Shown here piece by piece: positions 1,426 through 61,862 of a DNA stretch of 64,000 nucleotides (position 1 is its first letter; the number at the start of each line of letters is the position of its first letter). Below the pieces are notes generated by a model. That model did no database searches, was not told where the DNA came from, and saw only the letters and a list, made by a program, of their open reading frames with translations. Where the stretch lies: NCBI GenBank assembly GCA_046306055.1, contig JBKDXR010000058.1:110792-174791 (forward strand), read 5' to 3'. The position numbers were made by a program, and so were the translations under genes. This DNA comes from Flavobacteriales bacterium (GTDB taxonomy: Bacteria; Bacteroidota; Bacteroidia; Flavobacteriales_F; PHOS-HE28).

Positions 1426-3310
1426 GTGCGGTACGAAGGTCCGGCGGTGACGCGGGGCGTGCAATAGAACCTTTGTTAGGGGTGTGGAACGGCACGATGC
1501 AGCCGAACCGTGTGCCTTGGTCCACTGTGAAGTGGCAGGTACCGCCCAAGGCCTGCAAGCGCTGGCGCATGTTGCGCAGGCCGTTGCCACCGTCCACGTT
1601 GTCGGGGAACCCCACGCCATTGTCGTGCACCACCATGCTGAGGATGCCTTGGTCGCCGTCGGTGCGGTAGGTGATGGTGAGGTCCACTGCGGAGGCCTGG
1701 GCGTGCTTCACCACGTTGTGGAGCGCTTCCTTCAGCACCAGGAAGAGGTTGCGCCGCTGTTCCACGCTGAGCTGCACGATCGGCCATGTGGGGTCAGTGG
1801 TCACGAGCAAGGCCAGGTCGTTCTCTGCGCAATAGGTGCGGGCATAGCTGGTGGTGTAGACCACCCAATCCTCCAAGGTGGACTGGTCGTGGCCCATGGT
1901 CCAGATGATCTGGCGCATGCTGCCGATGAGCTCGCCTGCGCTGGCGGCCATGGACTGTAGCTGCTGCCGCTTTGCAGGGTCCTTCTCCACGCGTAGGGCC
2001 ATTTCGCTGCGGAGCTTCAATCCACTGAGGCCCGCACCCAGGTCGTCGTGCATGTCGCTGGCAATGCGCATGCGCTCGTGCAGGATGGCCTGTTCGCGTT
2101 CAAATTCCGCCTTGCGCCGCCGCCGGTCGATGATGGTCCACATGACCGAAGCACCGATCACCAGCACGCCCAGCAGTACGGCCAGCAGCAACTTGCGTTG
2201 GTTGGAAGCCTTCACCTCGGCAAGCACGCGCGCGTTCTCCGCCTGCTCGCGCTCGGCCACGTAGGCCAGGCTGTCCTGCAGGGCCTGCTGCCGATAACTG
2301 AAGGCGATCTGCGCACGCAACAGCTCTTCGCGCCCCTTCTCGTTGTGCAGGCTGTCCATCATGGTGGCGTACAGCTCGTGCATGGCCAGGGCCTTCCGGA
2401 GGTCGCCCTCCTGCTTGTAGAGGGTGTGCAGGCTCCCCGCAGCGTCGAACACTTCGGCGGCCATGGAGCTGGCTTGTGCCAATGCCAGGGATCGTTCGTT
2501 GAGCGCAATGGCTTCACGGCGCCGACCCTGCGCGGCGCGCAAGTGACCGATGCTGCGCAGGAGGATGGCCTGTTGCCGTTCGTCCATGATGCGTTCAGCG
2601 ATGCGCAGTGCGGATCCCAGCCGTTCCTCGGCCATCGCCAGCCGGCCCGCCGCACGGTCCAGGTTGCCCAGGTTGCCAAGCACCAGCGCTAGGCTGCGCT
2701 CATCGCCCGAGCGTTGGTGCAGCCGCTCCGCTTCCAGGAAGCGCGCGTAGGCGGCAGCCGTATCGCGCAGCTGCAACAAGGCGGTACCGCTGTTGAGCGC
2801 CGCGTTGCCCATGCAGGCCGTATCGCCCGCCAATGTACATGCCACCATGCTGCTGTCGCAGTGGCGCAGGGCCTTCGTGTGGTCGCCCAGATCGGTATGG
2901 ATGGCGCCGATGTTGGCGTGCGAGATGCCGATCCGCCGTTGATCGCCCATGCGTTTGAGCACCGCGATACTGCGTTGGTAGCGGTCCAACGCACCCGGCC
3001 GATCGCCCCGCAACTGCAGCGAGGCGCCCTGCGCGTTCCACCCGATGGCCTCGTGCTTCAGGTCCTGCTGGCGGCGCGCCAGTTCCACCAGCTGCTCGGC
3101 GAGCTGGTAGGCCGTGTCGGGCGCGTGGAACATGTAGTGGTCAAAGGCCAGGTAGTCCAAGGCCTGCATACGCTCCACTGCAGGCTGTGCCCCATCGCGC
3201 ACCACCGCCCACAACGAATCGGCGTTGACCTGCGCATGCACACACCCTACGGCGGTCGTGGTGAATAGGGCGGACAGCAATGCAGTGCGGAACATGCGCG
3301 GTGTGGTCAT
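1391..3310 (-). CDS. Sensor histidine kinase with periplasmic/N-terminal TPR repeats (HisKA_3 + HATPase_c)
   Basis: 639 aa. Signal peptide, multiple TPR-like repeats, one TM helix (LLLAVLLGVLVIGASVMW), then RIASDMHDDLGAGLSGL (His box, NarX/DegS type) and an HATPase region (HDNGVGF...GNGLRNMRQRL). Cognate to the adjacent LuxR regulator. Confidence 0.8.
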   Translation of the reverse strand: MTTPRMFRTALLSALFTTTAVGCVHAQVNADSLWAVVRDGAQPAVERMQALDYLAFDHYMFHAPDTAYQLAEQLVELARRQQDLKHEAIGWNAQGASLQLRGDRPGALDRYQRSIAVLKRMGDQRRIGISHANIGAIHTDLGDHTKALRHCDSSMVACTLAGDTACMGNAALNSGTALLQLRDTAAAYARFLEAERLHQRSGDERSLALVLGNLGNLDRAAGRLAMAEERLGSALRIAERIMDERQQAILLRSIGHLRAAQGRRREAIALNERSLALAQASSMAAEVFDAAGSLHTLYKQEGDLRKALAMHELYATMMDSLHNEKGREELLRAQIAFSYRQQALQDSLAYVAEREQAENARVLAEVKASNQRKLLLAVLLGVLVIGASVMWTIIDRRRRKAEFEREQAILHERMRIASDMHDDLGAGLSGLKLRSEMALRVEKDPAKRQQLQSMAASAGELIGSMRQIIWTMGHDQSTLEDWVVYTTSYARTYCAENDLALLVTTDPTWPIVQLSVEQRRNLFLVLKEALHNVVKHAQASAVDLTITYRTDGDQGILSMVVHDNGVGFPDNVDGGNGLRNMRQRLQALGGTCHFTVDQGTRFGCIVPFHTPNKGSIARPASPPDLRTAHAEHPHQPGRG

Positions 3311-17801: not shown

Positions 17802-18491
17802 ATGTCCGCTCCGAACGACCACCTTGATCTGTACTTCCAATGGGAGGTACGCTCCTGGTCGCGGGCCTTTCCGCTCTGGCACCGCACCTTGGCGGCTATT
17901 CCCAAGGAACGATGCTGGGCGCTCGCCTTGGGTGAACGGGATGGAGGACTGAGCTTGATGCTCGCCGATCACGGATTCACTACGGTCTGTAGCGATCTGC
18001 ACGGACCCACGGACCGGGCCAAAGCGCTTCACCGGACCTTCGGCTGGGACGAAGCCATTACCTACGAAGCCATCGACGCCACAGCGATACCCAAGCCGGA
18101 CGCGAGCTTCGATGTGGTGGTCTTCAAGAGCATGATCGGGGCGCTGGGAAGCAAGGAGAAGCAGGCACTGGCCATCCGCGAAATGCACCGTGTCCTAAGA
18201 CCGGGAGGTGTGTTGCTCTTCGCGGAGAACCTTCATGGCAGTCCGTTGCACATTTGGCTGCGCAAGCGCTTCGTGGCCTGGGACCACTACTGGCGCTACC
18301 TCGATCCAGTGAAGGACCGCGACCTGTTCGCACCCTTCGCCCATTTGGAGGACCACACCACCGGCGTGGTGGCGAACCTGGGCCGTTCGGAAGGCCAACG
18401 AGACCTGTTGGCCCGGTTCGATGCGCTCATCCAACCGCTCATTCCGCCCACACAACGCACCATCTGGTATGGCGTGGCGGTGAAAGGCTGA
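17802..18491 (+). CDS. Class I SAM-dependent methyltransferase
   Basis: Motif I-like ALALGERDGGLSLMLADHGF, FDVVVF, LRPGGVLLF. Confidence 0.6.
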   Translation: MSAPNDHLDLYFQWEVRSWSRAFPLWHRTLAAIPKERCWALALGERDGGLSLMLADHGFTTVCSDLHGPTDRAKALHRTFGWDEAITYEAIDATAIPKPDASFDVVVFKSMIGALGSKEKQALAIREMHRVLRPGGVLLFAENLHGSPLHIWLRKRFVAWDHYWRYLDPVKDRDLFAPFAHLEDHTTGVVANLGRSEGQRDLLARFDALIQPLIPPTQRTIWYGVAVKG

Positions 18492-18581
18492 TCGTGGAAA
18501 AGCCCGGAACCCTGGGGCAGAAGGACTTCCCGTGCCGGTCTACCTTCGCCATCCGAGGCGCGATCCAGCGTCCATCGCCAA

Positions 18582-19565
18582 ATGTCAGACCGCGCGTCCC
18601 TTCCCGTACTGGTCACCGGTGGCTCCGGGTTCATTGGCAGCCATGTGTGCGATGCACTGTTGGAACGAGGCATGGCCGTGCGTTGCATGGACAACTTCGC
18701 GACCAGTAAGCGGAGCAACATCGCCCATCTGGAAGGTCGATCGGACTTTGTGCTCGTGGAAGGTGACATTCGCGATGCCGATGCCTGTCGCAGGGCGATG
18801 GTCGGCGTTCGGGCGGTGGTGCACTTGGCCGCATTGGGTTCCGTACCTCGGTCCATTGCCGATCCGCTCGCTTCGCATGCCACCAACCTCACCGGTTTCC
18901 TGAACGTGTTGGACGCGGCCCGGCTGGAAGGGGTGGACCGCTTCGTGTACGCATCCAGTTCCAGTGTTTACGGGAACTCCAAGGAACTGCCCAAGCGAGA
19001 ACCGAACACCGGCGATCCGCTCTCGCCCTATGCCGTTACCAAAGCGGGCAACGAGCTCTATGCGCAGTTGTACACGCGGCTGCACGGCATGAATACCATT
19101 GGGCTGCGCTTCTTCAATGTGTTCGGCGAACGGCAGGACCCCGAAGGACCTTATGCGGCTGCCATTCCGCGGTTCATCAAGGCCTTTCTAAAGCACGAGG
19201 CCCCACAAGTGCATGGCGATGGACAGCAATCGCGCGACTTCACCTACGTGGGCAATGCCGTGATGGCCGTGTTAGCGGCGTTGGACAGCACCGATCCACG
19301 AGCCGTTGGGCAGGTGTTCAATGTGGCCTATGGTGATCGCACTACGCTGTTGCAGCTGATCAACGCTCTGCGGGAGGCATTGGCCTTGACCGATGCGGCC
19401 ATTGGTAGTGTGGGCGTGCAGCATGTCGCCGAACGCCCGGGCGACATCCGCGATTCGCTCTCCGATATCAGCAAAGCGCGCGAACTGCTGGGCTATGCTC
19501 CACAGTTCGACCTGAAGGCAGGTCTTGATCGCGCGGTGCCTTGGTATGTCCGGAACTGGGGCTGA
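18582..19565 (+). CDS. NAD-dependent UDP-sugar 4-epimerase (WbpP/WbgU-like UDP-GlcNAc 4-epimerase family)
   Basis: VLVTGGSGFIGSH, VYASSSSVYGNSKELP, PLSPYAVTK (the SDR YxxxK motif). The pattern matches WbpP-type epimerases. Confidence 0.8.
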   Translation: MSDRASLPVLVTGGSGFIGSHVCDALLERGMAVRCMDNFATSKRSNIAHLEGRSDFVLVEGDIRDADACRRAMVGVRAVVHLAALGSVPRSIADPLASHATNLTGFLNVLDAARLEGVDRFVYASSSSVYGNSKELPKREPNTGDPLSPYAVTKAGNELYAQLYTRLHGMNTIGLRFFNVFGERQDPEGPYAAAIPRFIKAFLKHEAPQVHGDGQQSRDFTYVGNAVMAVLAALDSTDPRAVGQVFNVAYGDRTTLLQLINALREALALTDAAIGSVGVQHVAERPGDIRDSLSDISKARELLGYAPQFDLKAGLDRAVPWYVRNWG

Positions 19566-20868: not shown

Positions 20869-21806
20869 GGCTTCACCTCCCATCTCTTGATCATGCGGTC
20901 GTCCGAGGCGGTGAGCAATGCGACCGGGGTCCAGAGTACGGCGTTCACGCTGTGGGTGTGACCATGCACTGAACGGTCCAAGCGTTGAATGGGCTCAAGC
21001 GTATTCGCGTCCCATAGCTTCACGGTCTTGTCGCGGCTCACGCTGCAAAAGCGCTGTCCGTCAGGGTTGAACACCAGGCGGTAAATGGATCCCTTGTGTG
21101 CCGGTATGCCGAGCAACGGCCTGAACCCTTCCGTTGCGTGCCAGCTGCGCAGGTACCCGTCCTTGCCTCCGCTGATGAGCACGGGCTTGTGCGGATGGAA
21201 GGCAATGCTGGTGGCCCCTCCAGGCTGTTCGAACAGGGTGGGATGTGCTGCTATGGTCGCCTTTTCGTTGAAATAGGTGGTATCCAGAATGCGAACCTGG
21301 CCATCGCCACAGGCTACTGCCAGCAGTTCATCCTGGGTGTCCACGGCCAGGTCGCGCAGTTTCTCTTCGCACAGGGGGAAATGACGCACCAGTTCCAATG
21401 TCGCGCCGTTGCCCGTGTTCGTTCGCCAGATGCTCAGCGTACCATCGCCACCGGCGCAGGCGATCCTGTTATCGCTGAAAGCCACCATGCGGAAGATCCC
21501 CTTCCGGTGTACGGTGAAGCGGTGGAGCTCGCGCCCGTGCACGGCATCGATCACGAACAGGTCGCCGCCTTCGGTGCCGATCAACAGGAGCGTGCCCCTG
21601 CGCAACAGGCTGAAGACCGCCTGTCCCACGTTCACCAGCACATGACCCGCCTCCGGGTCATGAAGCTTCCAGCGCACCACCAGTCCATCACCTGAACCTG
21701 AAAGGAACGTGTCGCCATCCCCCTCGGAGGCCAGCGCATAAACGGGCCCACGATGACCGGTGAACGTGGCTCCCACCAACTGGTCCGTTGACCGCTCCAT
21801 GGGCAA
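20865..21806 (-). CDS. WD40-repeat beta-propeller protein
   Basis: Repeated GH...SGS.DG.V..W WD motifs (FTGHRGPVYALAS...SGSGDGLVVRWKL and others). Confidence 0.75.
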   Translation of the reverse strand: MPMERSTDQLVGATFTGHRGPVYALASEGDGDTFLSGSGDGLVVRWKLHDPEAGHVLVNVGQAVFSLLRRGTLLLIGTEGGDLFVIDAVHGRELHRFTVHRKGIFRMVAFSDNRIACAGGDGTLSIWRTNTGNGATLELVRHFPLCEEKLRDLAVDTQDELLAVACGDGQVRILDTTYFNEKATIAAHPTLFEQPGGATSIAFHPHKPVLISGGKDGYLRSWHATEGFRPLLGIPAHKGSIYRLVFNPDGQRFCSVSRDKTVKLWDANTLEPIQRLDRSVHGHTHSVNAVLWTPVALLTASDDRMIKRWEVKP

Positions 21807-42391: not shown

Positions 42392-43432
42392 ATGCGTGCC
42401 CTCAAGACCCTGCTGATCATCCTGTTATCCCTTCTAGCCCTGCTCGTGGTGCTGGGGCTGATGGGCCCTTCCACCTACCGGGTGGAGCGTTCCACGGTGG
42501 TGGCTGCGCCGCCCGAGGTGGTGTATGGGTATGTGAGCCGATTGGAGAGCATGAAGCAGTGGGGCCCCTGGCAGGAAATGGACAAGGACCAGGTGCAAAG
42601 CCTGGAAGGCACCGACGGCACCGTGGGCGCTGTATGGAAGTGGGAGGGCGATACCGTGGGCAAGGGCAGTCAGACCATCATGTCCTTGGAACCGAACAGG
42701 TCCGTGCGCTGCAAGCTGCACTTCGTGGAACCCTTCGAGTCCATCAGCACCGCCACTTACGACCTGCAGGCCGTGGGCGACAGCACCATGGTGACCTGGG
42801 GCATGGAAGGGGAGAACGGTTTCATGGGCAAGGTGATGGGCGTGTTCATGGACATGGACAAAATGATCGGTCCCGACTTCGAAAAAGGTCTCGCCAATCT
42901 GAAGGGCCTGGCCGAGAAAGAGCAGGCGGACAAAGCGGCCGCAGTGGCCGGGAAGACCTTCGGGGGATATGTGATCGAGACCATCGAGCGCCCCGAAATG
43001 GTGTATGTGGGTAAGCGGAGCAAGGTGAAGTTCAGCGAGTTGGAGAAGTTCTATGGCAGCAGTTTCGGTGCCGCCGGTGCGGCCATCGGCACGGCCGGGC
43101 TCAACATGGCCGGCGCGCCCAGCGGGGTGTACTTCCAGTGGGATGAGAAGGCCCAGGTGGCCGACCTGTTCGCCGGCATGCCCGTGGTGGCCCCAGCCGA
43201 TGTGAAGCTACCCGGCATGGAGGTGTACACGGTGCCTGCCTCGAAGATGCTGCACATTGCCTACTACGGATCTTACGATGGCTCCATGCGCGCCCACATG
43301 GCCATGGACGAGATGATCCAGGCCAAGGGCTTTACGCACTACGGCAACGTGATCGAAGAGTTCATCACCGACCCCATGGCCGAGCCCGATACGACCAAGT
43401 GGCTCACGAACATCTACTACATGATCAAGTGA
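42392..43432 (+). CDS. SRPBCC (Bet v1/AHSA1-like) domain fused to a GyrI-like small-molecule-binding domain
   Basis: N-terminal TM anchor, then an SRPBCC region (STYRVERSTVVAAPPEVVYGYVS...WKWEGDTVGKGSQTI) and a C-terminal GyrI-like half (YVIETIERPEMVYVGKR...HIAYYGSYDGSMRAH...NIYYMIK). Confidence 0.6.
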   Translation: MRALKTLLIILLSLLALLVVLGLMGPSTYRVERSTVVAAPPEVVYGYVSRLESMKQWGPWQEMDKDQVQSLEGTDGTVGAVWKWEGDTVGKGSQTIMSLEPNRSVRCKLHFVEPFESISTATYDLQAVGDSTMVTWGMEGENGFMGKVMGVFMDMDKMIGPDFEKGLANLKGLAEKEQADKAAAVAGKTFGGYVIETIERPEMVYVGKRSKVKFSELEKFYGSSFGAAGAAIGTAGLNMAGAPSGVYFQWDEKAQVADLFAGMPVVAPADVKLPGMEVYTVPASKMLHIAYYGSYDGSMRAHMAMDEMIQAKGFTHYGNVIEEFITDPMAEPDTTKWLTNIYYMIK

Positions 43433-43569
43433 TCGGCAGATGGGGCGGGCCGTGCTGGGCTCAGCGGCCTTCAGTTCCTCGAAGGACGAGAATCGGCGAA
43501 GGGTGTTCATCGGTCCAGCGGTGCTCCGTGCCTCCAAGATACGGCAACGGCTGGCGGTCGAGTTAAACG

Positions 43570-43746
43570 TCATTCCCGGCACGCCGCCCGCAGCTCCTCG
43601 AGCGTGCGGTAGTTGAGCGCGGGGATGTAGCCCGCTACGCCCGCGCGCATGCCCTCGGCCACCATGGCCACATTGCTCACCAGGAACATCGGTGCCATGA
43701 TCAAGGGGTGCTCCAGGTGGAGCATATCGGTGAGGCGGGTGCGCAT
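43570..43746 (-). pseudogene. Relic copy of the 5' end (first ~55 codons) of the NMO/FabK-like gene found at 1..602
   Basis: Reads MRTRLTDMLHLEHPLIMAPMFLVSNVAMVAEGMRAGVAGYIPALNYRTLEELRAACRE then TGA. About 88-90% nt identity to ~430-602, then unrelated sequence on both sides. Confidence 0.6.
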
Positions 43747-43817
43747 GGTGTAAAGGTCGTATACGAGCAGCCGATCCGCGATCGATCATGCTCGTGGACG
43801 GCGCATGACATGTAGGT

Positions 43818-47861: not shown

Positions 47862-48569
47862 ATGAACTTTCGTTCCCTTCACTTGATAGCTAGTGTCGTA
47901 CTGGGCCTTTGGTCCTGCGGCATGTTCGCCCAAACGGACGGCGGCTTTCATGTGCTGCAGGCCAACGTGATCAATGGCGATACGGTCCCCTTGGTGCAAC
48001 TGCCCGAGACCCGGGTGGAGGCCCGTTGGCGCCCACGCGACCGGCGCGAAGCGGCCCGGTACGACAAGTTGACGCGCAACATCATCCGGGTGTATCCCTA
48101 TGCGCGCATCACCGGCGAACTGCTGCGGGAGTATGAGCACGATCTGACACAGATCCAACGGGAGAGCGATCAGGACCTGTACCTGAAACTTGCCGAGGCC
48201 GAACTGCGCGCCGAGTTCGAGGAGGAGGTGAAGGACCTGACCATGAGCCAGGGCCGGGTGCTCATCAAGTTGATCGACCGCGAGACCGGCAAGACATCCT
48301 TTGACCTGGTGCGCCAGCTGCGCGGGTCGTTCACGGCGTTCGTATGGCAGGGCCTGGCCCGTTTGTTCGGCCATGACCTGCGCAGCACCTACGACCCGGA
48401 AGGCGAGGACCGTATGATGGAGCTGGTGGTGCAACGCATAGAGCGGGGCGAACTGGCCGTGGCCCCCAGGGCGGCACGTACGGCCAAGGCCCAGGCCCGA
48501 TTGGAAAAGCGCAAGGCCCGGTTGTACCGCAAGTACGGCCTTCCCTTGGAGCCAGTGAGCGCCAATTGA
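47862..48569 (+). CDS. DUF4294 family secreted protein
   Basis: Signal peptide. ARYDKLTRNIIRVYPYARI...MSQGRVLIKLIDRETG pattern typical of DUF4294. Confidence 0.55.
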   Translation: MNFRSLHLIASVVLGLWSCGMFAQTDGGFHVLQANVINGDTVPLVQLPETRVEARWRPRDRREAARYDKLTRNIIRVYPYARITGELLREYEHDLTQIQRESDQDLYLKLAEAELRAEFEEEVKDLTMSQGRVLIKLIDRETGKTSFDLVRQLRGSFTAFVWQGLARLFGHDLRSTYDPEGEDRMMELVVQRIERGELAVAPRAARTAKAQARLEKRKARLYRKYGLPLEPVSAN

Positions 48570-50062: not shown

Positions 50063-52036
50063 ATGCGCACAATGGTACTCCTGGTCTCGCAACTGTTCAC
50101 GGTCCTTGTGTCCGCCCAGCAGCAGGTCTTCTTCGAGGATTTCGAGGCACCCATGCCCGCGTTCGCACCGAACACGCCCGATGTGGGTTCGGTCACCTCG
50201 GGGGACAATACCTGGTTGATCAATAACGCCTATTCCGGAGGCAACGGGACCATCACCTGCCTGGGCTTTCCGTTCTCCTTCACCGTGCCCACCACGGCGG
50301 CACAGCCGGGAGGCATCACTACGCCCAACGGACGTTACCTGCACACCACCAGCACGGCGGCCATCGCCAGTGGTGTGCAGAACTGCTGCTTCGTGGCCGC
50401 CGATGGCCTGTGTGCCCAACCGGCCAATCATTTCGCGCGGATGACACTGGACGTGAGCACCATCGGCGCTGCTAGCGCCACCCTCACGTTCTGGTGGCTG
50501 TGCGGCGGCGGCACCAGCAACTACGGCGAAGTGTATTACAGCACGAACTCAGGCACCACCTGGAACCTGATCTCCACGCCCATTGCCCAATACCGGAACC
50601 AATCCACATGGACACAGCAGACCATCACCCTTCCCGAACTTGGTGGGCAGTCCACCTTGCGTTTCGGGTTCCGGTTCGTGAACGGCACCACACTCAGCGC
50701 ACAGGACCCCGGCTTCGGCATCGATGATGTGCGCATCACCGTGCCTACTTCGGTCACCAACACCATCACTACTGGTGATCTGGCCTCTTCGTTGATCTGC
50801 CAAGGGGCTTCGATCGGTGTGCCTTACACGGCAACCGGGACCTGGGGAGCGGGCAACGTGTTCACGCTCCAACTCTCCGATGCCAGTGGCAGCTTCGCGG
50901 CTCCGGTCGCCATCGGCACCTTGGCGTCCAATGCGTCCGGTACCGTTCCCGGCCTTGTGCCTGCGAACACCCCGCCGGGTGCGGGTTATCGCTTGCGGGT
51001 CGTAGGTAGCGATCCGCTCACCGTTGGCGTTGTGGGCAGCATCAGCTACGAGGTGGTGCCGGCGCCATTCGCTGGTGATGATGCCACGGTATCGCTCTGC
51101 AAGAACACGGGCACCTACGATCTCTTCGCCTTCCTCAGTGGAGCACCGGCCACCTGTGGATCTTGGTCGGGGCCCCAAGGGGCGGTCCCTTCCGGTCTGA
51201 TCAACACGGCCACGGACGTTGGCGGCCAATACGTGTTCACCACGGCATGCCCGGGCGGTTGTCCGCAGGATGAGGCCACCCTCGCCATTACGCTGTTCGA
51301 TCCGGCGAACGCAGGCATCGATGTGGCCTTGTCCGAATGCGACGATAACCTGCCCGCTACCCTGTACGGCTACGTGAGCGGTGGCAGTCTTTCCGGCATC
51401 TTCTTCCTGAACGAGCAGCCTGTCACCAATTCCATCCTACAGAACGCAGGTGTGTATCCGTTGCATTACGTGGTCTATGGCACAGGACCTTGTGCGAACG
51501 ACACCGCTTCGATAACGATCACCGTGAACCCCGCGCCGAACGCGGGCGTGAGCACCACCTTCACGGCTTGCGTGAACGGTAGCCCGGTCGACCTGATCAA
51601 CCTGCTGGCCGGAGCCGATGAAGGAGGCACATGGGAAGCCCCCGGAGGGGGGGCGTTCGCAGGGACCTTGGTACCTTCCACTGGCTTATCAGGGCTTTAC
51701 ACGTACACCGTCCCGGGAACAGCACCCTGCATGGATGCGCAGGCCTTCGTTGCCGTGGTGATCGATCCCTGCCTGGGCATTGGCGATTCGGTCGAATTGC
51801 CCGCGATCCAATGGGGAGGCCAACAGACCGAAGGACACCTGCTGATCATGCCGGATGATCATCGTGTGCTGGACGTGATCACTACGAACGGTAACCGCGT
51901 GGACCATCGAAGGATCCCCTCGTCCCAGGGTCGCCAATGGCTTCAACTGGCAGAAGCTTCCAGCGGAGCCTATTGCGTTCGCATTTCGGGTCCGGAAGGC
52001 GTGCGTGTGCTTCGCTTGTTGCATACGGCCCAGTAG
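50063..52036 (+). CDS. T9SS-secreted surface protein: MAM/choice-of-anchor-J-like N-domain, Ig-like repeats, C-terminal Por_Secre_tail sorting domain
   Basis: Signal peptide. N-domain FFEDFE...YYSTNSGTTWNLI...GIDDVRIT; a Thr/Gly/Ser-rich middle; C-terminus ...GAYCVRISGPEGVRVLRLLHTAQ, which is type-A CTD-like. Confidence 0.65.
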   Translation: MRTMVLLVSQLFTVLVSAQQQVFFEDFEAPMPAFAPNTPDVGSVTSGDNTWLINNAYSGGNGTITCLGFPFSFTVPTTAAQPGGITTPNGRYLHTTSTAAIASGVQNCCFVAADGLCAQPANHFARMTLDVSTIGAASATLTFWWLCGGGTSNYGEVYYSTNSGTTWNLISTPIAQYRNQSTWTQQTITLPELGGQSTLRFGFRFVNGTTLSAQDPGFGIDDVRITVPTSVTNTITTGDLASSLICQGASIGVPYTATGTWGAGNVFTLQLSDASGSFAAPVAIGTLASNASGTVPGLVPANTPPGAGYRLRVVGSDPLTVGVVGSISYEVVPAPFAGDDATVSLCKNTGTYDLFAFLSGAPATCGSWSGPQGAVPSGLINTATDVGGQYVFTTACPGGCPQDEATLAITLFDPANAGIDVALSECDDNLPATLYGYVSGGSLSGIFFLNEQPVTNSILQNAGVYPLHYVVYGTGPCANDTASITITVNPAPNAGVSTTFTACVNGSPVDLINLLAGADEGGTWEAPGGGAFAGTLVPSTGLSGLYTYTVPGTAPCMDAQAFVAVVIDPCLGIGDSVELPAIQWGGQQTEGHLLIMPDDHRVLDVITTNGNRVDHRRIPSSQGRQWLQLAEASSGAYCVRISGPEGVRVLRLLHTAQ

Positions 52037-52315
52037 AAACGGGCGGTGCACAACTTGTGGATAAGCCGGGGTCGAAAAACTTGATGAGCACCCGCTCCTG
52101 AGGGTACTTTCGGATCACCAATGTTCTTTGTGTCATTCGATCGTGCTGTAACGCACAACGGGTAAGGGTTGAGGCAAATCGTGAGCTACGGCTTACGGCG
52201 GGTTTGGTAAGAAACCCCGCATCAACCTTGGGCGGCATGCCAGACGTGTCCCCGAACCGGATCGCACCTTGGATGCATTCATCCAAGGAGGGCGCAGGGG
52301 ATGAGGGCATACGAT

Positions 52316-52380
52316 GGGGACCACGGTCAACATCGGATGGGAGCGGGGATCGCCAAAACGGTGGTCCCCGCTTCATTTTT
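52316..52380 (+). terminator. Stem-loop followed by a T-run (possible intrinsic terminator or ncRNA 3' end) inside the long intergenic region
   Basis: GGGGACCACGG ... CGGTGGTCCCC (one mismatch) followed by GCTTCATTTTT. Confidence 0.3.
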
Positions 52381-52419
52381 CACCTGCGCTCCACACTGCG
52401 CTGATGTTCCGGTGATGAA

Positions 52420-52433
52420 CACGATCGATCGTG
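52420..52433. promoter_or_regulatory. Perfect 14-bp palindrome CACGATCGATCGTG (candidate operator) ~45 nt upstream of the -7 box of the PhoH2 gene
   Basis: Exact dyad symmetry, seen directly in the sequence. Confidence 0.3.
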
Positions 52434-52478
52434 GATAAGTGCGATCCAATTGGACCCCGCTTCCGGAAAAGCTGCGGA

Positions 52479-52486
52479 TAGCTTTG
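52479..52486 (+). promoter_or_regulatory. Bacteroidota-type -7 promoter box TAGCTTTG (TAnnTTTG) 23 nt upstream of the PhoH2 start
   Basis: A perfect match to the sigma-A(Bfr) -7 consensus at the typical distance from the start codon. Confidence 0.45.
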
Positions 52487-52508
52487 ATGCACACCGTTCC
52501 TTGATCGA

Positions 52509-53843
52509 ATGAAGAAAAAAGACCGCAAGATCTTCGTACTGGATACATCCGTGATCCTCTACGACCACTCGGCCATCGAGAATTTCGAAGAGCACGACGT
52601 GGCCATCCCCATACAAGTCCTGGAAGAGCTCGATACGTTCAAGAAAGGAAATGACACCATCAACTTCGAAGCCCGGGAGTTCATCCGGCATCTGGACGAC
52701 ATCGCAAAGACCGATGTGCTGACCGATTGGATACCGCTGAACGGGCCATCGCACGGCAAGTTCAAGGTGGTGGCCAAGCATGACCTGAACGGGGTGGATG
52801 CCACCAAGGTCTTTGCCGACGGCAAGAACGACCACCAGATCCTGAACGCCACCCTCACCCTGCAACGCCAGAACCCCGGCCGCAAGGTGGTGCTGGTCAC
52901 CAAGGACATCGCGCTCCGCCTGAAGGCCAAGAGCCTGAACCTGCTGTCCGAGGATTACCTCACGGGCAAGGTTCGCGATGTGCGCGAGAAGCTGTACACC
53001 GGCCGCACCGTGGTGGACGATTACTCCGAGGAACAGATCGATCGGTTGTTCTCCGAAGGCAGTATCGAGGTCTCGGAGCTGGGCGTGGAAAAGCCCAAAG
53101 GCAACCACTTTTTCATCCTGAAGCACAAGAAGAAGAGCATCCTTGCGAAGTTCGACCCGCGCACCGGACGCGTGGACCGGGTGGAGAAGCAGAGCGTGTT
53201 CGGTATCGGTCCCAAGAACGCGGAGCAGGCCCTGGCCATGAGCGCCTTGCTGGACCCGGAGATCAAGCTGGTGACCCTGCAGGGTGCGGCCGGCACGGGC
53301 AAGACCCTGCTCGCTTTGGCCTGTGCCTTGGAGCAACGACGGGAATATCGACAGATCTACGTGACGCGTCCCGTTGTGCCATTGAGCAACAAGGATATCG
53401 GTTACCTGCCCGGCGATATCCAGAGCAAGCTGGACCCGTACATGCAACCCTTGTGGGACAACCTCAAGTTGATCAAGGGCCAGTTCGAGAAGCACGACAG
53501 TACGCCGAAACGCATCGATGAGATGCTCGAGAACGAGAAGATCGCCATCGCGCCACTGGCCTATATCCGAGGTCGCAGCCTGGCCAACATCTTCTTTATC
53601 GTGGATGAGGCCCAGAACCTGACGCCGCTGGAAGTAAAGACCGTGATCAGCCGCGCCGGCGAGGGCACCAAGATCGTGTTCACCGGTGATGTGCACCAGA
53701 TCGACACACCCTTCCTGGATACGGAGAGCAATGGCCTCAGCTACCTGATCGACAAGGCCAAGGGTGATCCGCTGTTCGCACACATCACCTTGGAGAAAGG
53801 CGAACGCAGTCCGCTGGCCAACCTGGCGAATGACCTGCTCTGA
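52509..53843 (+). CDS. PhoH2-type protein: N-terminal PIN domain fused to a PhoH-like ATPase
   Basis: PIN (KIFVLDTSVILYD...IPIQVLEELD), Walker A GAAGTGKT, and the PhoH C-terminal signature. Confidence 0.85.
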   Translation: MKKKDRKIFVLDTSVILYDHSAIENFEEHDVAIPIQVLEELDTFKKGNDTINFEAREFIRHLDDIAKTDVLTDWIPLNGPSHGKFKVVAKHDLNGVDATKVFADGKNDHQILNATLTLQRQNPGRKVVLVTKDIALRLKAKSLNLLSEDYLTGKVRDVREKLYTGRTVVDDYSEEQIDRLFSEGSIEVSELGVEKPKGNHFFILKHKKKSILAKFDPRTGRVDRVEKQSVFGIGPKNAEQALAMSALLDPEIKLVTLQGAAGTGKTLLALACALEQRREYRQIYVTRPVVPLSNKDIGYLPGDIQSKLDPYMQPLWDNLKLIKGQFEKHDSTPKRIDEMLENEKIAIAPLAYIRGRSLANIFFIVDEAQNLTPLEVKTVISRAGEGTKIVFTGDVHQIDTPFLDTESNGLSYLIDKAKGDPLFAHITLEKGERSPLANLANDLL

Positions 53844-53922: not shown

Positions 53923-54321
53923 TCAGAAAAGGTCCTTCACCTCAATGAAGTTGAAGTCCAGATTGAAGAAGCTTTGATAATCCTTGCCGGTCTCTGCCAT
54001 TTCCTCATCACCGGTCTCGTAGTGCCAGTTCACCTGAACGCGTTGTCCCCGTTCGCTCACGGCATCGAGCTTTTGGAAGATGTTATAGAGGTGCTTGGAG
54101 GAGCTGGTGTCCAGGTAGTCCAACCGCATGTTCACCGTGGTTTCCACCTTGGGGGCGCGCAGGTACTCATCAAGCCAGTTGTACACGCGGTGGTAGAACT
54201 GCTCGGAATTGTGCGGCAATGAACGCCCTATGAACTCGAGTAGTCCTTGGTCGAGATCAAGGTCCACCTCGGGCGAGGTCTCTGTACGTTCAATGTGGAA
54301 TCGCTTCATGGCCTCGGTCAT
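53923..54321 (-). CDS. DUF1987 (SiaC-like) protein
   Basis: LEFIGRSLPHNSEQFYHRVYNWLDEYL...RLDYLDTSSSKHLYNIF...VQVNWHYETGDEEM...FNLDFNF matches the DUF1987 pattern (FxGxSxPEN...WL..Y...L.YxNTSS.K...). Confidence 0.55.
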   Translation of the reverse strand: MTEAMKRFHIERTETSPEVDLDLDQGLLEFIGRSLPHNSEQFYHRVYNWLDEYLRAPKVETTVNMRLDYLDTSSSKHLYNIFQKLDAVSERGQRVQVNWHYETGDEEMAETGKDYQSFFNLDFNFIEVKDLF

Positions 54322-54413
54322 TACAACACATCAAAGGTGCTGTTGCGTGGCCGAGGGATATGGTTGGAAAAGAACCTTGGACCAACACCCCGATGTTGAT
54401 CGGTGGCGTTGGC

Positions 54414-54824
54414 CTATCGGCTGCGGTACTCCGTAACGATCTCGTGGTCCGAGGGAAGAATGATCTCCGTGTCGTTCACACGACGCACCCAGTAGAGGTA
54501 TTTGCCGGTGCCCTGACAGGCGAACACGGTCAAGACCTCATTGCCGGAAAGCGTGCGCACCGGGAAGATCCGCCATGTACCGTTCTTTTCCTGAACGGCC
54601 ACTTTCACCTCCACGAGGTCCGTACAGGTGTTCTTGAGGTCCACGCTGTAGGTGCCGCTGAAATCACGTTTGTATCCGTCCTTGTAGATCTCGCACTTCT
54701 CACAGGGCGCTCCCCAGCGGCTGGCGGTCTTGATCAGGCAATCCGCAGGGTCGCGGTCCTGGGCACCTGCCCAGAACGCCATCAGCACACCAAGGATGAG
54801 CAGAAGGGTCTTCTTCACGGTCAT
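54414..54824 (-). CDS. Hypothetical secreted Cys-containing protein
   Basis: Signal peptide MTVKKTLLLILGVLMAFWAGAQ; 8 Cys. Its ATG overlaps the stop of the upstream TPR gene. Confidence 0.45.
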   Translation of the reverse strand: MTVKKTLLLILGVLMAFWAGAQDRDPADCLIKTASRWGAPCEKCEIYKDGYKRDFSGTYSVDLKNTCTDLVEVKVAVQEKNGTWRIFPVRTLSGNEVLTVFACQGTGKYLYWVRRVNDTEIILPSDHEIVTEYRSR

Positions 54825-55354
54825 TTGCAGCGGTTGTTGTTCAGGATGATCTTGGCTTCCGCATTTCCCATGCGCTGGCTGCTTCGCCAGGCCTTGCAAG
54901 CACTGTCCATGTCGCCCTTTGCTTTGTAGGCCCAGCCTTTGTTGTTCCAAGCCTCCTCATTCCGGGGGTCAAGGCTAATCACCATTTCAAGGTCCGCCAA
55001 GGCCTTGTCGTGCTCTCCGGACCTGAGATATGAACTGCCGCGTGTGGTATACGCCAAGGCATGGGTGGGCTCCCGTTCGATCACCAGGGTGAGGTCCTTG
55101 ATCGCATCGGCGTACTGCTTCAGCATCACCAAACAGAAAGCCCTGTTCAAGTAGGCGTTCAGGTGTGTCGGGTCCAAGGCGATCGCTTCCGTGAAGTACA
55201 CCACGGCCTCGGTATGGTCACCACGGCGAAAGGCCTGTTCGCCCTGCTCATAAGCGCCCTTGTTCGTGGTCGATGTACGCGCCTCTGCCATGTACTGGGC
55301 CCTGCTCATGAATACGGCAAGGAACATGAAGGCCAGAACAAGCGATGAGCGCAT
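54821..55354 (-). CDS. TPR-repeat secreted protein
   Basis: Signal peptide MRSSLVLAFMFLAVFMSRAQ; three or four TPR units. Confidence 0.65.
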   Translation of the reverse strand: MRSSLVLAFMFLAVFMSRAQYMAEARTSTTNKGAYEQGEQAFRRGDHTEAVVYFTEAIALDPTHLNAYLNRAFCLVMLKQYADAIKDLTLVIEREPTHALAYTTRGSSYLRSGEHDKALADLEMVISLDPRNEEAWNNKGWAYKAKGDMDSACKAWRSSQRMGNAEAKIILNNNRCK

Positions 55355-61023: not shown

Positions 61024-61196
61024 GGTCGTTCGTGTTGATGTCTGTCAAAACTCCACATGCACAGGGCCGCACCCAATACCGGGATCGTGGTATGTGCGCG
61101 TGAAATGGTGAACGATCGATCGTTCTTGTTTGCTGCAGAAGGATGACATGGCTCATTCGGCTGGTCGCTCGAAGTGTTAGCACGTAGCTTCGCCGC

Positions 61197-61862
61197 ATGT
61201 CCCGTGGGCGCAGTGTGTTCCTCTTCCTGATGGTATCCCTGGTGTTCGCATTGCCGGCATTACTGGCCGTGCTGCTCACCGATCAGTTGGATTTACACAG
61301 CGCCATCAACCGGTATCACGCGGGGTGGGCCGATCGCTTCTTCCGGTTCATCACGCACTGGGCCGATGGCCTGGTGCCGACCGCCGTGGCATTGCTCTTC
61401 CTGTTCTTCGGAACGCTTCGCTCGTTCATGATGATGGGGTTGAGCTGTGGTCTAAGCGCGATCGTGGCGCAACTGCTCAAGCGACAGGTGTTCGATCACG
61501 TGCATCGGCCCTTCATGTTCCGTGAGCAGTTGAACGATATGCACTGGGTGCAAGGCGTTGAGCTGCACCATCACTTCAGCTTCCCGAGCGGCCATTCCAC
61601 GGCAGCCTTCAGCATGTGCCTGGCACTGGCGGTGATCGCGGCGAGGCCGAGGTTGGCGGTCCTATTGGCCGTGGCTGCTTCGCTGATGGCCTTTTCGCGG
61701 GTCTATCTCTCGCAGCATTTCACCGAGGATATACTCGCCGGTGCGGCCGTGGGTTCGGCGACCGCCGTGCTGATCTGGCGATGGCTCTATGTCGGGAAGT
61801 TCGCCGAACGCCCATGGCTGGACCGGCGGGTGATACGGTCAACGAGCACTATGTTGCCGTAA
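61197..61862 (+). CDS. PAP2-superfamily lipid phosphate phosphatase (membrane)
   Basis: PAP2 motifs KRQVFDHVHRP (KxxxxxxRP), FPSGHS, SRVYLSQHFTED (SRxxxxxHxxxD). Confidence 0.75.
   Translation: MSRGRSVFLFLMVSLVFALPALLAVLLTDQLDLHSAINRYHAGWADRFFRFITHWADGLVPTAVALLFLFFGTLRSFMMMGLSCGLSAIVAQLLKRQVFDHVHRPFMFREQLNDMHWVQGVELHHHFSFPSGHSTAAFSMCLALAVIAARPRLAVLLAVAASLMAFSRVYLSQHFTEDILAGAAVGSATAVLIWRWLYVGKFAERPWLDRRVIRSTSTMLP

Follow-up and report, generated by a model that had tools for sequence, protein, structure and literature searches.

The DNA analysed here is a 64,000-nucleotide (nt) stretch of the Flavobacteriales contig JBKDXR010000058.1, referred to below as the window. Within it, a gap of 472 nt (52037-52508) separates two genes that are both located on the plus strand. 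The upstream gene (50063-52036) is an open reading frame (ORF) of 657 amino acids, for which the sole family signal is a sub-threshold Reelin-subrepeat match. The protein encoded downstream contains the Pfam domains PIN_4 and PhoH, in agreement with its previous assignment as PIN-PhoH2; PhoH2 proteins combine a PIN RNase and a PhoH RNA helicase in one chain. In an earlier reading of this DNA, based on its letters and ORFs (hereafter, the sequence-only reading), the gap was described as highly structured, and was proposed to contain an unannotated small RNA ending at a T run, or a regulated leader, together with an operator-controlled promoter for the PIN-PhoH2 gene. The structured RNA predicted in this gap, the two predicted promoters P1 (of the RNA) and P2 (of phoH2), and the linkage of the RNA to phoH2 are the subject of this analysis. 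The coordinates of the features are given in Table 1.

A genome scan with the PhoH2 protein resulted in 80 loci (L001-L080), of which L001-L027 are close relatives, with 76-100% amino-acid identity, from uncultured Flavobacteriales genomes. The gene for the 657-aa ORF is syntenic in most loci. The DNA similarity to the gap is restricted to its final ~200 nt in most relatives; the exception is L001, which is 94.7% identical throughout, and L019 has an additional block in common with the window directly behind the upstream stop codon. When the 260 nt preceding the ATG were aligned, four conserved blocks emerged: the hairpins at 52308-52339 and 52340-52374, the sequence ACACGATCGATCGTGGATAAGTGCG, the -7 box and the leader. 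Metagenome contigs were scanned with a pattern derived from the terminal hairpin of the RNA only, which gave 78 loci, and the RNA was recognised in these loci by the presence of the GGUAAG hairpin (H3) upstream. By this rule, 28 of the 78 loci are RNA copies. The other 50 have neither the H3 motif nor the palindrome downstream, and many of them match on both strands; they were taken as unrelated G+C-rich hairpins. The set used for structure and covariation consisted of 17 genome-set sequences, so that, with the 28 metagenome copies, 45 copies were available in total.

The description of the gap as highly structured was borne out by folding. Compared with dinucleotide shuffles, the gap had a z-score of -5.57 on the plus strand and -3.33 on the minus strand; for the part containing the RNA (52115-52383) the z-score was -6.32, and none of 200 shuffles was equally stable. 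One architecture is common to the individual predicted folds of the RNA copies, and the copies in the 17 genome loci, measured from the P1 start through the terminal hairpin, are 251-302 nt long. G-U pairs are frequent on the plus strand, which identifies this as the transcribed strand.

The sequence-only reading had named covariation over the orthologous intergenic regions as a way to check the structure. H3, H4, H6 and the terminal hairpin were tested on loop-anchored segments or on natural alignments, and H1, H2, H5 and the junction helix are predictions from the individual folds. The further stem mentioned in the sequence-only reading, GCGGGTTTGGTAAGAAACCCCGC, is present and corresponds to H3. 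Its motif, TGGTAAGA, was found in 17 of 17 genome-set sequences; 84% of the alignment cells are paired, both sides have changed at five of the six pairs (giving the stem variants CCU/AGG, CUU/AAG, GUU/AAC and UUU/AAA), and no shuffle out of 500 reached the score. In H4, whose CCAG (CCAGN) loop is nearly invariant, 78% of the cells are paired versus 26-46% when the partner strand was slid, with changes on both sides at seven of eight pairs (0/500 shuffles). All 11 pairs of H6 have changed on both sides in the 17 sequences, and its loop is YACG or CAAG. For H6 and the terminal hairpin taken together, 86% of the cells are paired (slid controls, 37-52%), 18 of 26 pairs show changes on both sides, and again 0 of 500 shuffles reached the score. 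The closing helix was tested by exchanging its strands between species: in 16 homologues, matched strands had a mean energy of -18.75 kcal/mol and swapped strands of -14.06 kcal/mol, and the matched mean was not reached in any of 20,000 permutations. H3, H4, H6 and the terminal hairpin thus covary, and the closing helix passes the strand-exchange test.

The remaining helices vary in sequence. The perfect 9-bp hairpin singled out in the sequence-only reading (CCTTGGATG-CATT-CATCCAAGG) is present as H5, but its sequence is conserved in L001 only, unlike the GGTAAG hairpin, the terminal hairpins, the palindrome and the -7 box, which are conserved more widely. In the minimum-energy fold predicted for each homologue, the stretch from H4 to the 3' strand of the closing helix does contain a hairpin, unrelated in sequence outside L001, and hairpins of unrelated sequence are predicted in the homologues at the positions of H1, H2 and the junction helix. 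The spacing between the conserved loops is 33-38 nt, in steps that are not multiples of three. Pairing between UGG in the H3 loop and CCA in the H4 loop is possible and is not claimed; L025 lacks CCAG yet has GGUAAG.

Table 1. Features of the phoH2 upstream region; positions are those of the window.
Feature	Position	Strand	Details and basis
P1 upstream element GTGCACAACTTGTGGATAAG	52046..52065	+	conserved as GTKCACAAsTTGTGsAWAAG in ~30 loci
P1 core promoter	52075..52112	+	A-rich tract; -33 TTG at 52081-52083; 21-nt spacer; -7 box TACTTTCG at 52105-52112
Predicted structured non-coding RNA, ~264 nt	~52117..52380	+	fold z-score, homologues, covariation
Closing helix, 5' strand (CC...GUUCUUUGUGUC)	52118..52134	+	predicted fold; pairs with 52291-52307 (GGCGCAGGGGAU...GG)
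Hairpin H1, variable	52143..52156	+	predicted fold only
Junction helix, encloses H2 and H3	52165-52175 with 52219-52229	+	predicted fold only
Hairpin H2, UACG loop	52179..52198	+	predicted fold only
Hairpin H3, GCGGGTTTGGTAAGAAACCCCGC	52198..52220	+	loop GGUAAG at 52206-52211; motif conservation and covariation
Hairpin H4	52230..52253	+	loop CCAGA at 52240-52244; covariation; covariance model R1 (H3-H4), E = 7e-14
Hairpin H5, perfect 9-bp stem	52267..52288	+	variable sequence at fixed position; sequence, predicted fold
Hairpin H6, three-part (CAU/AUG, CGAUG/CAUCG, GAC/GUC)	52308..52339	+	loop CACG at 52322-52325; covariation
Terminal hairpin and U run	52340..52380	+	15-bp G+C-rich hairpin at 52340-52374 (10 G-C pairs), then UUUUU at 52376-52380; intrinsic-terminator form
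P2 upstream element ACACGATCGATCGTGGATAAGTGCG	52419..52443	+	nearly invariant in ~24 related loci
P2 -7 box TAGCTTTG	52479..52486	+	exact TAnnTTTG, 22 nt before ATG
P2 leader, 18 nt, ACACCGTTCCTTGATCGA	~52491..52508	+	predicted start ~52491; conserved block form CCGTTCCTTGATCGA
PIN-PhoH2 gene	52509..53843	+	444 amino acids; Pfam PIN_4 E = 3e-32, PhoH E = 1e-49; ATG at 52509

The long stem-loop followed by a T run that had been noted previously is the terminal hairpin, and it is preceded by a second hairpin, H6. In the window it has the form of an intrinsic terminator, as the G+C-rich stem is followed by ATTTTT. Across the homologues 95% of its cells are paired, seven pairs carry double changes, and its sequence is unusually conserved. 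A scan with a simple terminator consensus gave two matches versus 1.1 expected, which is not an enrichment. In about one third of the RNA copies (L004, L017, L019, L093, L096, L098, L099 and others) the sequence RCGTTC is found instead of the U tract, and it echoes the CGTTC motif of the RNA 5' end and of the phoH2 leader. In L019, a CCACATGTCGCC...GGGGCTAC unit occurs three times in the ~350 nt between the RNA hairpin and phoH2 (positions 2650-3000 of that locus); it might be a small repeat element that has been inserted.

P1 was found by looking upstream for -7-like boxes, and its layout recurs in ~30 loci. It starts 10 nt past the stop codon of the upstream ORF (52036). The first ~80 nt of the gap (52037-52116) are occupied by P1, and the predicted RNA takes up only part of the 472 nt. 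The proposal of a small RNA that ends at the T run is supported by the comparison with relatives, including the covarying helices. The upstream element GTGCACAACTTGTGGATAAG can be viewed as an inverted repeat and also as a pair of box units ~11 bp apart, of which the right one, TGTGGATAA (52056-52064), is the sole perfect DnaA-box-like 9-mer in the 64-kb window. In relatives, the P1 core reads GAAAATTGG, 20-21 nt, TAnnTTCG, and the conserved transcribed start is CACCAAyGTTCTTTG. P1 has been kept in L003 and L005, where the gene for the 657-aa ORF is absent and the neighbouring gene is divergent, and the RNA is therefore not the 3' tail of the upstream gene.

Bacteroidota sigma-A promoters are characterised by a -33 TTG and a -7 TAnnTTTG element (PMC9723704); the TTG, where present, precedes the -7 box by about 19-21 nt. 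The -7 box of P2 matches this sequence exactly, and that of P1, TACTTTCG, at seven of eight positions (TAnnTTCG), a TTG being located 21 nt before it; relatives have kept both boxes. According to a mapped transcriptome of a flavobacterium, the -7 box spans positions -12 to -5 (PMC9723704), and on this basis transcription is predicted to start at ~52117 (an A) from P1 and at ~52491 from P2. Two features distinguish the promoters from plain Bacteroidota sigma-A promoters: both have an extra conserved element at about -61 to -53, and P2 has no recognisable -33 element, as would fit a promoter that depends on an activator.

The sequence-only reading had reported a 14-bp palindrome and a -7 box (TAGCTTTG) before the PhoH2 ATG, and had regarded lack of conservation of the palindrome in relatives as evidence against its proposal. 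Both elements are present. The palindrome, CACGATCGATCGTG (52420-52433), overlaps the box CGTGGATAA (52430-52438); it is exact in 16 loci, and its flank GGATAAGTGCG is likewise nearly invariant across relatives. The -7 box and the leader are conserved in all close relatives, including loci that lack the RNA and loci with a divergent upstream gene, even where that gene is just ~200 nt away. The P2 elements have been kept in L009, L013-L016, L020-L023 and L027, all of which lack the RNA. Because P2 persists without the RNA and beside divergent genes, we conclude that it is a promoter in its own right, and the comparison supports the proposal of an operator-controlled PhoH2 promoter. A hairpin in the phoH2 leader that would sequester the start codon (UUCNUU...AAUGAA) was also considered and is not claimed, as its variation is not compensatory.

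P1 and P2 have a common design. The box GTGGATAAG is located exactly 39 nt before the -7 box in both of them, and the P1 and P2 transcripts both start ...CGTTCNTT in 12 of 16 loci. Judged by these sequences, P1 and P2 are paralogous modules, and the RNA and PhoH2 would thus probably be switched on together by one putative DNA-binding factor. A TGTKNAWAA box is also found before phoH2 in 17 of 52 distant Bacteroidota loci (L028-L080), compared with 2.8% of background windows, mostly 84-98 nt (~85) before the phoH2 start and often within an AACAA-N4-TTGTT inverted repeat. The box looks like an old element of phoH2 promoters, of which P1 would be a copy.

Candidates for the factor that binds the box were considered by resemblance. 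The box fits the DnaA-box consensus, TTWTNCACA, and is also similar to Pho boxes with their TGT-core direct repeats; in E. coli, phoH is a classic member of the phosphate regulon. By eye, the 16-bp sequence ACACGATCGATCGTGG matches 11 of 16 positions of the NrdR box, a 16-bp palindrome with the consensus acaCwAtATaTwGtgt; it is a single copy near -65, and NrdR boxes normally occur as tandem pairs near the core promoter. The non-canonical LexA operator of Bacteroidetes is a GGA-N5-TCC or CTAA-N5-TTAG palindrome (PMC8565304). Neither LexA pattern corresponds to the conserved palindrome or to the box, and this candidate was rejected.

In the window as a whole, the palindrome with at most two mismatches is found three times versus 0.35 expected, and sites similar to the promoter elements occur outside the gap. 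A third promoter-like site, located at 18490-18548 in the 90-nt gap before a gene for an NAD-dependent epimerase/dehydratase (18582-19565), consists of GATCGTGGAAAAG, 38 nt and the -7-like TACCTTCG, and may have a regulator in common with the RNA and phoH2. The sequence AACGATCGATCGTT (61111-61124) is a variant of the phoH2 palindrome, identical to the one at phoH2 in L003, L005 and L025. It lies in a divergent intergenic gap; a TAGCTTCG box follows at 59 nt, ahead of a gene for a PAP2-family phosphatase (61197-61862), and this location hints at a phosphate-related regulon. CGCGATCGATCATG (43777-43790), which differs from the palindrome at two positions and covers part of the start codon region of the minus-strand ORF 43208-43789, is probably due to chance. 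GATC sites number eight in the gap, compared with 3.3 on average per 472 nt elsewhere in the window. The P2 box of the window has a GATC on its 5' side, as do the boxes of many P1 copies in relatives and of the epimerase promoter, and this could matter if the organism methylates GATC.

Next, we consider the distribution of the RNA. A covariance model of H3-H4 (R1), run on the window and on L001-L080, recognised the RNA in the window, L001-L008, L010-L012, L017-L019 and L025; L024 has a low-G+C version that is recognisable by eye. No R1 match was obtained in L009, L013-L016, L020-L023 and L027, or in the 53 loci with ~60% identical PhoH2. The RNA family is therefore restricted to one clade, and is patchy within it. 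A second R1 match in the window (21108-21156; E = 0.002) lacks the GGUAAG loop and was regarded as noise. Linkage to phoH2 is tight: this gene immediately follows the RNA in 27 of 27 metagenome copies with readable downstream DNA and in 17 of 17 genome copies, and the position relative to phoH2 is fixed in 44 loci. By comparison, just 16 of the metagenome RNA copies have the 657-aa gene upstream. On the other side of phoH2 lie a gene for a regulatory phosphoprotein of the SiaC family (DUF1987; 53923-54321, minus strand) and a 189-aa ORF without family match (54360-54929, plus strand); both keep their place in almost every close relative, whether or not the RNA is present.

We then examined known families. 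None of the 4227 models of Rfam 15, which include 6S, SRP, RNase P, tmRNA, riboswitches and the Flavobacteria motifs, matched the 64-kb window at gathering thresholds; a permissive scan (E<=10) of 51800-52700 gave chance-level matches only, and a scan of nine homologous loci (E<=1) gave nothing on the RNA. In line with the sequence-only reading, in which no hallmarks of tmRNA, RNase P, SRP or 6S could be matched, no Rfam family explains the structure. ARAGORN did not find a tRNA or tmRNA in the window. A likeness to the tRNA D-arm, to RNase P J11/12 and to 23S rRNA had no support from any tool and is not claimed. Tandem Repeats Finder (51900-52600; score>=30) detected no tandem repeats, and the direct repeats in the region are two-copy repeats of 9-20 nt, a size expected by chance. 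The region is not a pseudogene remnant of phoH2 or of the upstream gene, as tblastn gave no similarity, and it has no other copy in the window that would indicate a repeat or mobile element; a 34-nt match at 48249-48282, where long ORFs are predicted on both strands, looks like chance. As to defence systems, PADLOC gave weak matches to generic helicase models only. A literature search found no paper on a phoH-linked RNA motif in Bacteroidetes.

Together, the sequence features, the conservation, the covariation and the genetic linkage, all of them direct observations, lead us to favour, with some reserve, the view that the gap contains a separate, clade-restricted small RNA gene that is linked to and co-regulated with PhoH2, followed by an independently promoted phoH2. 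The gap would then consist of two transcription units arranged head to tail. P1 (52046-52112), a sigma-A type Bacteroidota promoter, would drive an RNA of ~264 nt (~52117-52380) with a closed multi-helix structure, in which the closing helix sets the 5' end beside the 3' domain and contains the GGUAAG and CCAGN hairpins, the junction helix and the variable hairpins. These would be followed by the three-part hairpin and then by the G+C-rich terminal hairpin with its U run, where transcription most likely stops. P2 would drive PIN-PhoH2 from ~52491 with an 18-nt leader. Each promoter carries a TGTGNAWAA-type box at exactly 39 nt from its -7 box, on the upstream side (positions -61 to -53, approximately, from the predicted start), and most transcripts would start ...CGUUCNUU.

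Several points weigh against this view. We infer the start of the RNA, its end and its existence as a stable species from the sequence. A U tract (at least five U in the 8 nt after the stem) is present in just 23 of the 45 homologues; termination may therefore be leaky in many relatives, in which the RNA may be part of a long phoH2 leader. Close relatives with 86-90% identical PhoH2 have no RNA beside the gene, which indicates that PhoH2 is not strictly in need of it there. In addition, conserved complementarity to the phoH2 leader was not found beyond what the common 5' sequence accounts for.

Besides a separate small RNA, the sequence-only reading had allowed a regulated leader. We consider it possible, without favouring it, that the RNA is a cis-acting phoH2 leader or attenuator, either riboswitch-like or a protein-dependent switch. 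In this case P1 would be the chief regulated promoter, the folded domain would respond to a signal, the terminal hairpin would decide on read-through into phoH2, and P2 would provide a basal level only. In favour of a leader, one gene family always follows the RNA immediately, in the same orientation; its conserved loops and covarying stems are aptamer-like; the sequence of the terminal hairpin is far more conserved than termination alone would require, with half of the homologues lacking a strong U tract; and the layout of the P1 box is like that of the upstream elements of distant Bacteroidota phoH2 promoters. Against it, a complete and conserved promoter, P2, is located between the hairpin and the ORF and has been kept in relatives without the RNA and in those with divergent neighbours, and the distance from the hairpin to the start codon is 125-350 nt. 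Moreover, inspection of the 17 folds, which did not include a dedicated search for alternative structures, revealed no conserved antiterminator pairing; the sole candidate, between the 3' flank of H4 and the 5' arm of the terminator, is present in the window and L001 only. A match to a riboswitch or leader family of Rfam is also lacking.

The other alternatives are much less probable. That the region belongs to the 657-aa gene as its 3' untranslated part and terminator, with chance hairpins in G+C-rich DNA and the PhoH2 promoter as the only functional part, could be suspected because it begins right after the stop codon at 52036, because the upstream gene is syntenic in most loci and because terminator-like matches are not enriched. 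We regard this as improbable: the conserved promoter layout starts as little as 10 nt past that stop codon, the RNA has been kept in L003, L005 and ~11 metagenome loci, in which the upstream gene is divergent or missing, four helices show compensatory changes, and the loops are nearly invariant across loci with unalignable flanks. Stop-free stretches do occur in this G+C-rich DNA, and the region could in principle encode a small protein, such as a PhoAT-like antitoxin or the product of ORF 52204-52404 (+), 52301-52438 (+) or 51882-52376 (-). These ORFs have no Pfam match, no reading frame is conserved among the RNA homologues (several have stops in all three frames), loop spacing does not vary by threes, and the substitutions are compensatory in stems rather than codon-like, all of which makes a coding function very hard to believe. 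Just as implausible in our view is a replication origin, a DnaA-titrating site or a mobile or repeat element. The window's sole perfect DnaA-box 9-mer is located here, with a one-mismatch copy 374 nt downstream, and GATC sites are in excess, but these are two boxes only, with no A+T-rich unwinding element and a steady G+C content of 0.56-0.58, and the cumulative GC skew rises through the region and is monotonic across the window, with no turning point. A mobile or repeat element is contradicted by the fixed position at phoH2, the single copy in the window and the lack of tandem repeats.

If the RNA is indeed a separate small RNA, its constant position directly upstream of phoH2, whatever lies further upstream, argues that its function would concern PhoH2. 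It would then most likely be a trans-acting RNA that works with or on PhoH2, as a decoy, inhibitor or substrate, or that controls the phoH2 mRNA. At its 5' end, the RNA is predicted to have a short tail that leads into the closing helix, and the sequence there duplicates the start of the phoH2 mRNA; both this shape and this sequence would fit a role as decoy, inhibitor or substrate. Mycobacterial PhoH2 prefers RNA duplexes with a 5' overhang (PMC7390352), a shape which the short 5' tail and helix resemble. By analogy, the RNA might be a dedicated partner of PIN-PhoH2, a structured decoy or inhibitor in the role that the PhoAT protein has in mycobacteria; we hold this more specific proposal to be rather unlikely. 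Were it true, the RNA would be an RNA antitoxin or regulator of a new type, without repeats, that acts on a PIN-domain enzyme and is induced together with this target by way of a duplicated promoter. In any case, it is a concrete candidate ligand, substrate or regulator for PhoH2 that can be made in vitro. The analysis also defines a conserved phoH2 promoter element, and adds to the sparse catalogue of Bacteroidota non-coding RNAs a family of ~265 nt with 45 copies, four supported helices and near-invariant loops.

Among known systems, the locus is most like a pair of an RNA and a nuclease. As in type III toxin-antitoxin systems (ToxIN), an RNA gene is located directly upstream of, and on the same strand as, the gene of a (putative) endoribonuclease, to which it is tightly linked, with a terminator-like hairpin in between. 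However, ToxI-type antitoxins, which bind and inhibit the nuclease, are tandem arrays of short repeats that are cut into units by the toxin, whereas the RNA described here is repeat-free and forms one large multi-helix fold. In addition, the nuclease gene here encodes a PIN-PhoH fusion and has a predicted promoter of its own, and the locus belongs to the syntenic core genome rather than to a defence island. The mycobacterial phoH2 gene is co-transcribed with phoAT, whose product, a small VapB-like protein, is believed to hold the PIN nuclease in check (PMC7390352). Both loci have a short genetic element directly upstream of phoH2 that may modulate PIN-PhoH2, but phoAT encodes a protein, while the element here has no conserved ORF and is a covarying RNA with its own predicted promoter and terminal hairpin. 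Having neither repeats nor an ORF, it lacks the defining features of both systems.

In terminator-type riboswitches and T-box leaders, too, a conserved folded domain and then a terminator hairpin precede the members of one gene family, in the same orientation as the gene. The locus differs from them by the conserved promoter between the hairpin and the gene, by the long distance to the start codon and by the lack of an Rfam match; a single transcript, as in a riboswitch or cis-acting leader, is not what the predicted promoters indicate. Riboswitch and T-box leader domains have an estimated size of ~100-300 nt, similar to that of the RNA here. Bacterial Y RNAs, which lie beside rsr/Ro60, are another example of a structured RNA linked to the gene of an RNA-handling protein, and are, like the RNA described here, of a structured, non-base-pairing type. 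There is no sequence or Rfam similarity to Y RNAs, ARAGORN gave no tRNA-like module, and the proposed partnership with PhoH2 derives from linkage. The RNA, which matches no Rfam family, is thus best placed among the clade-specific structured small RNAs of bacteria that have a conserved gene partner.

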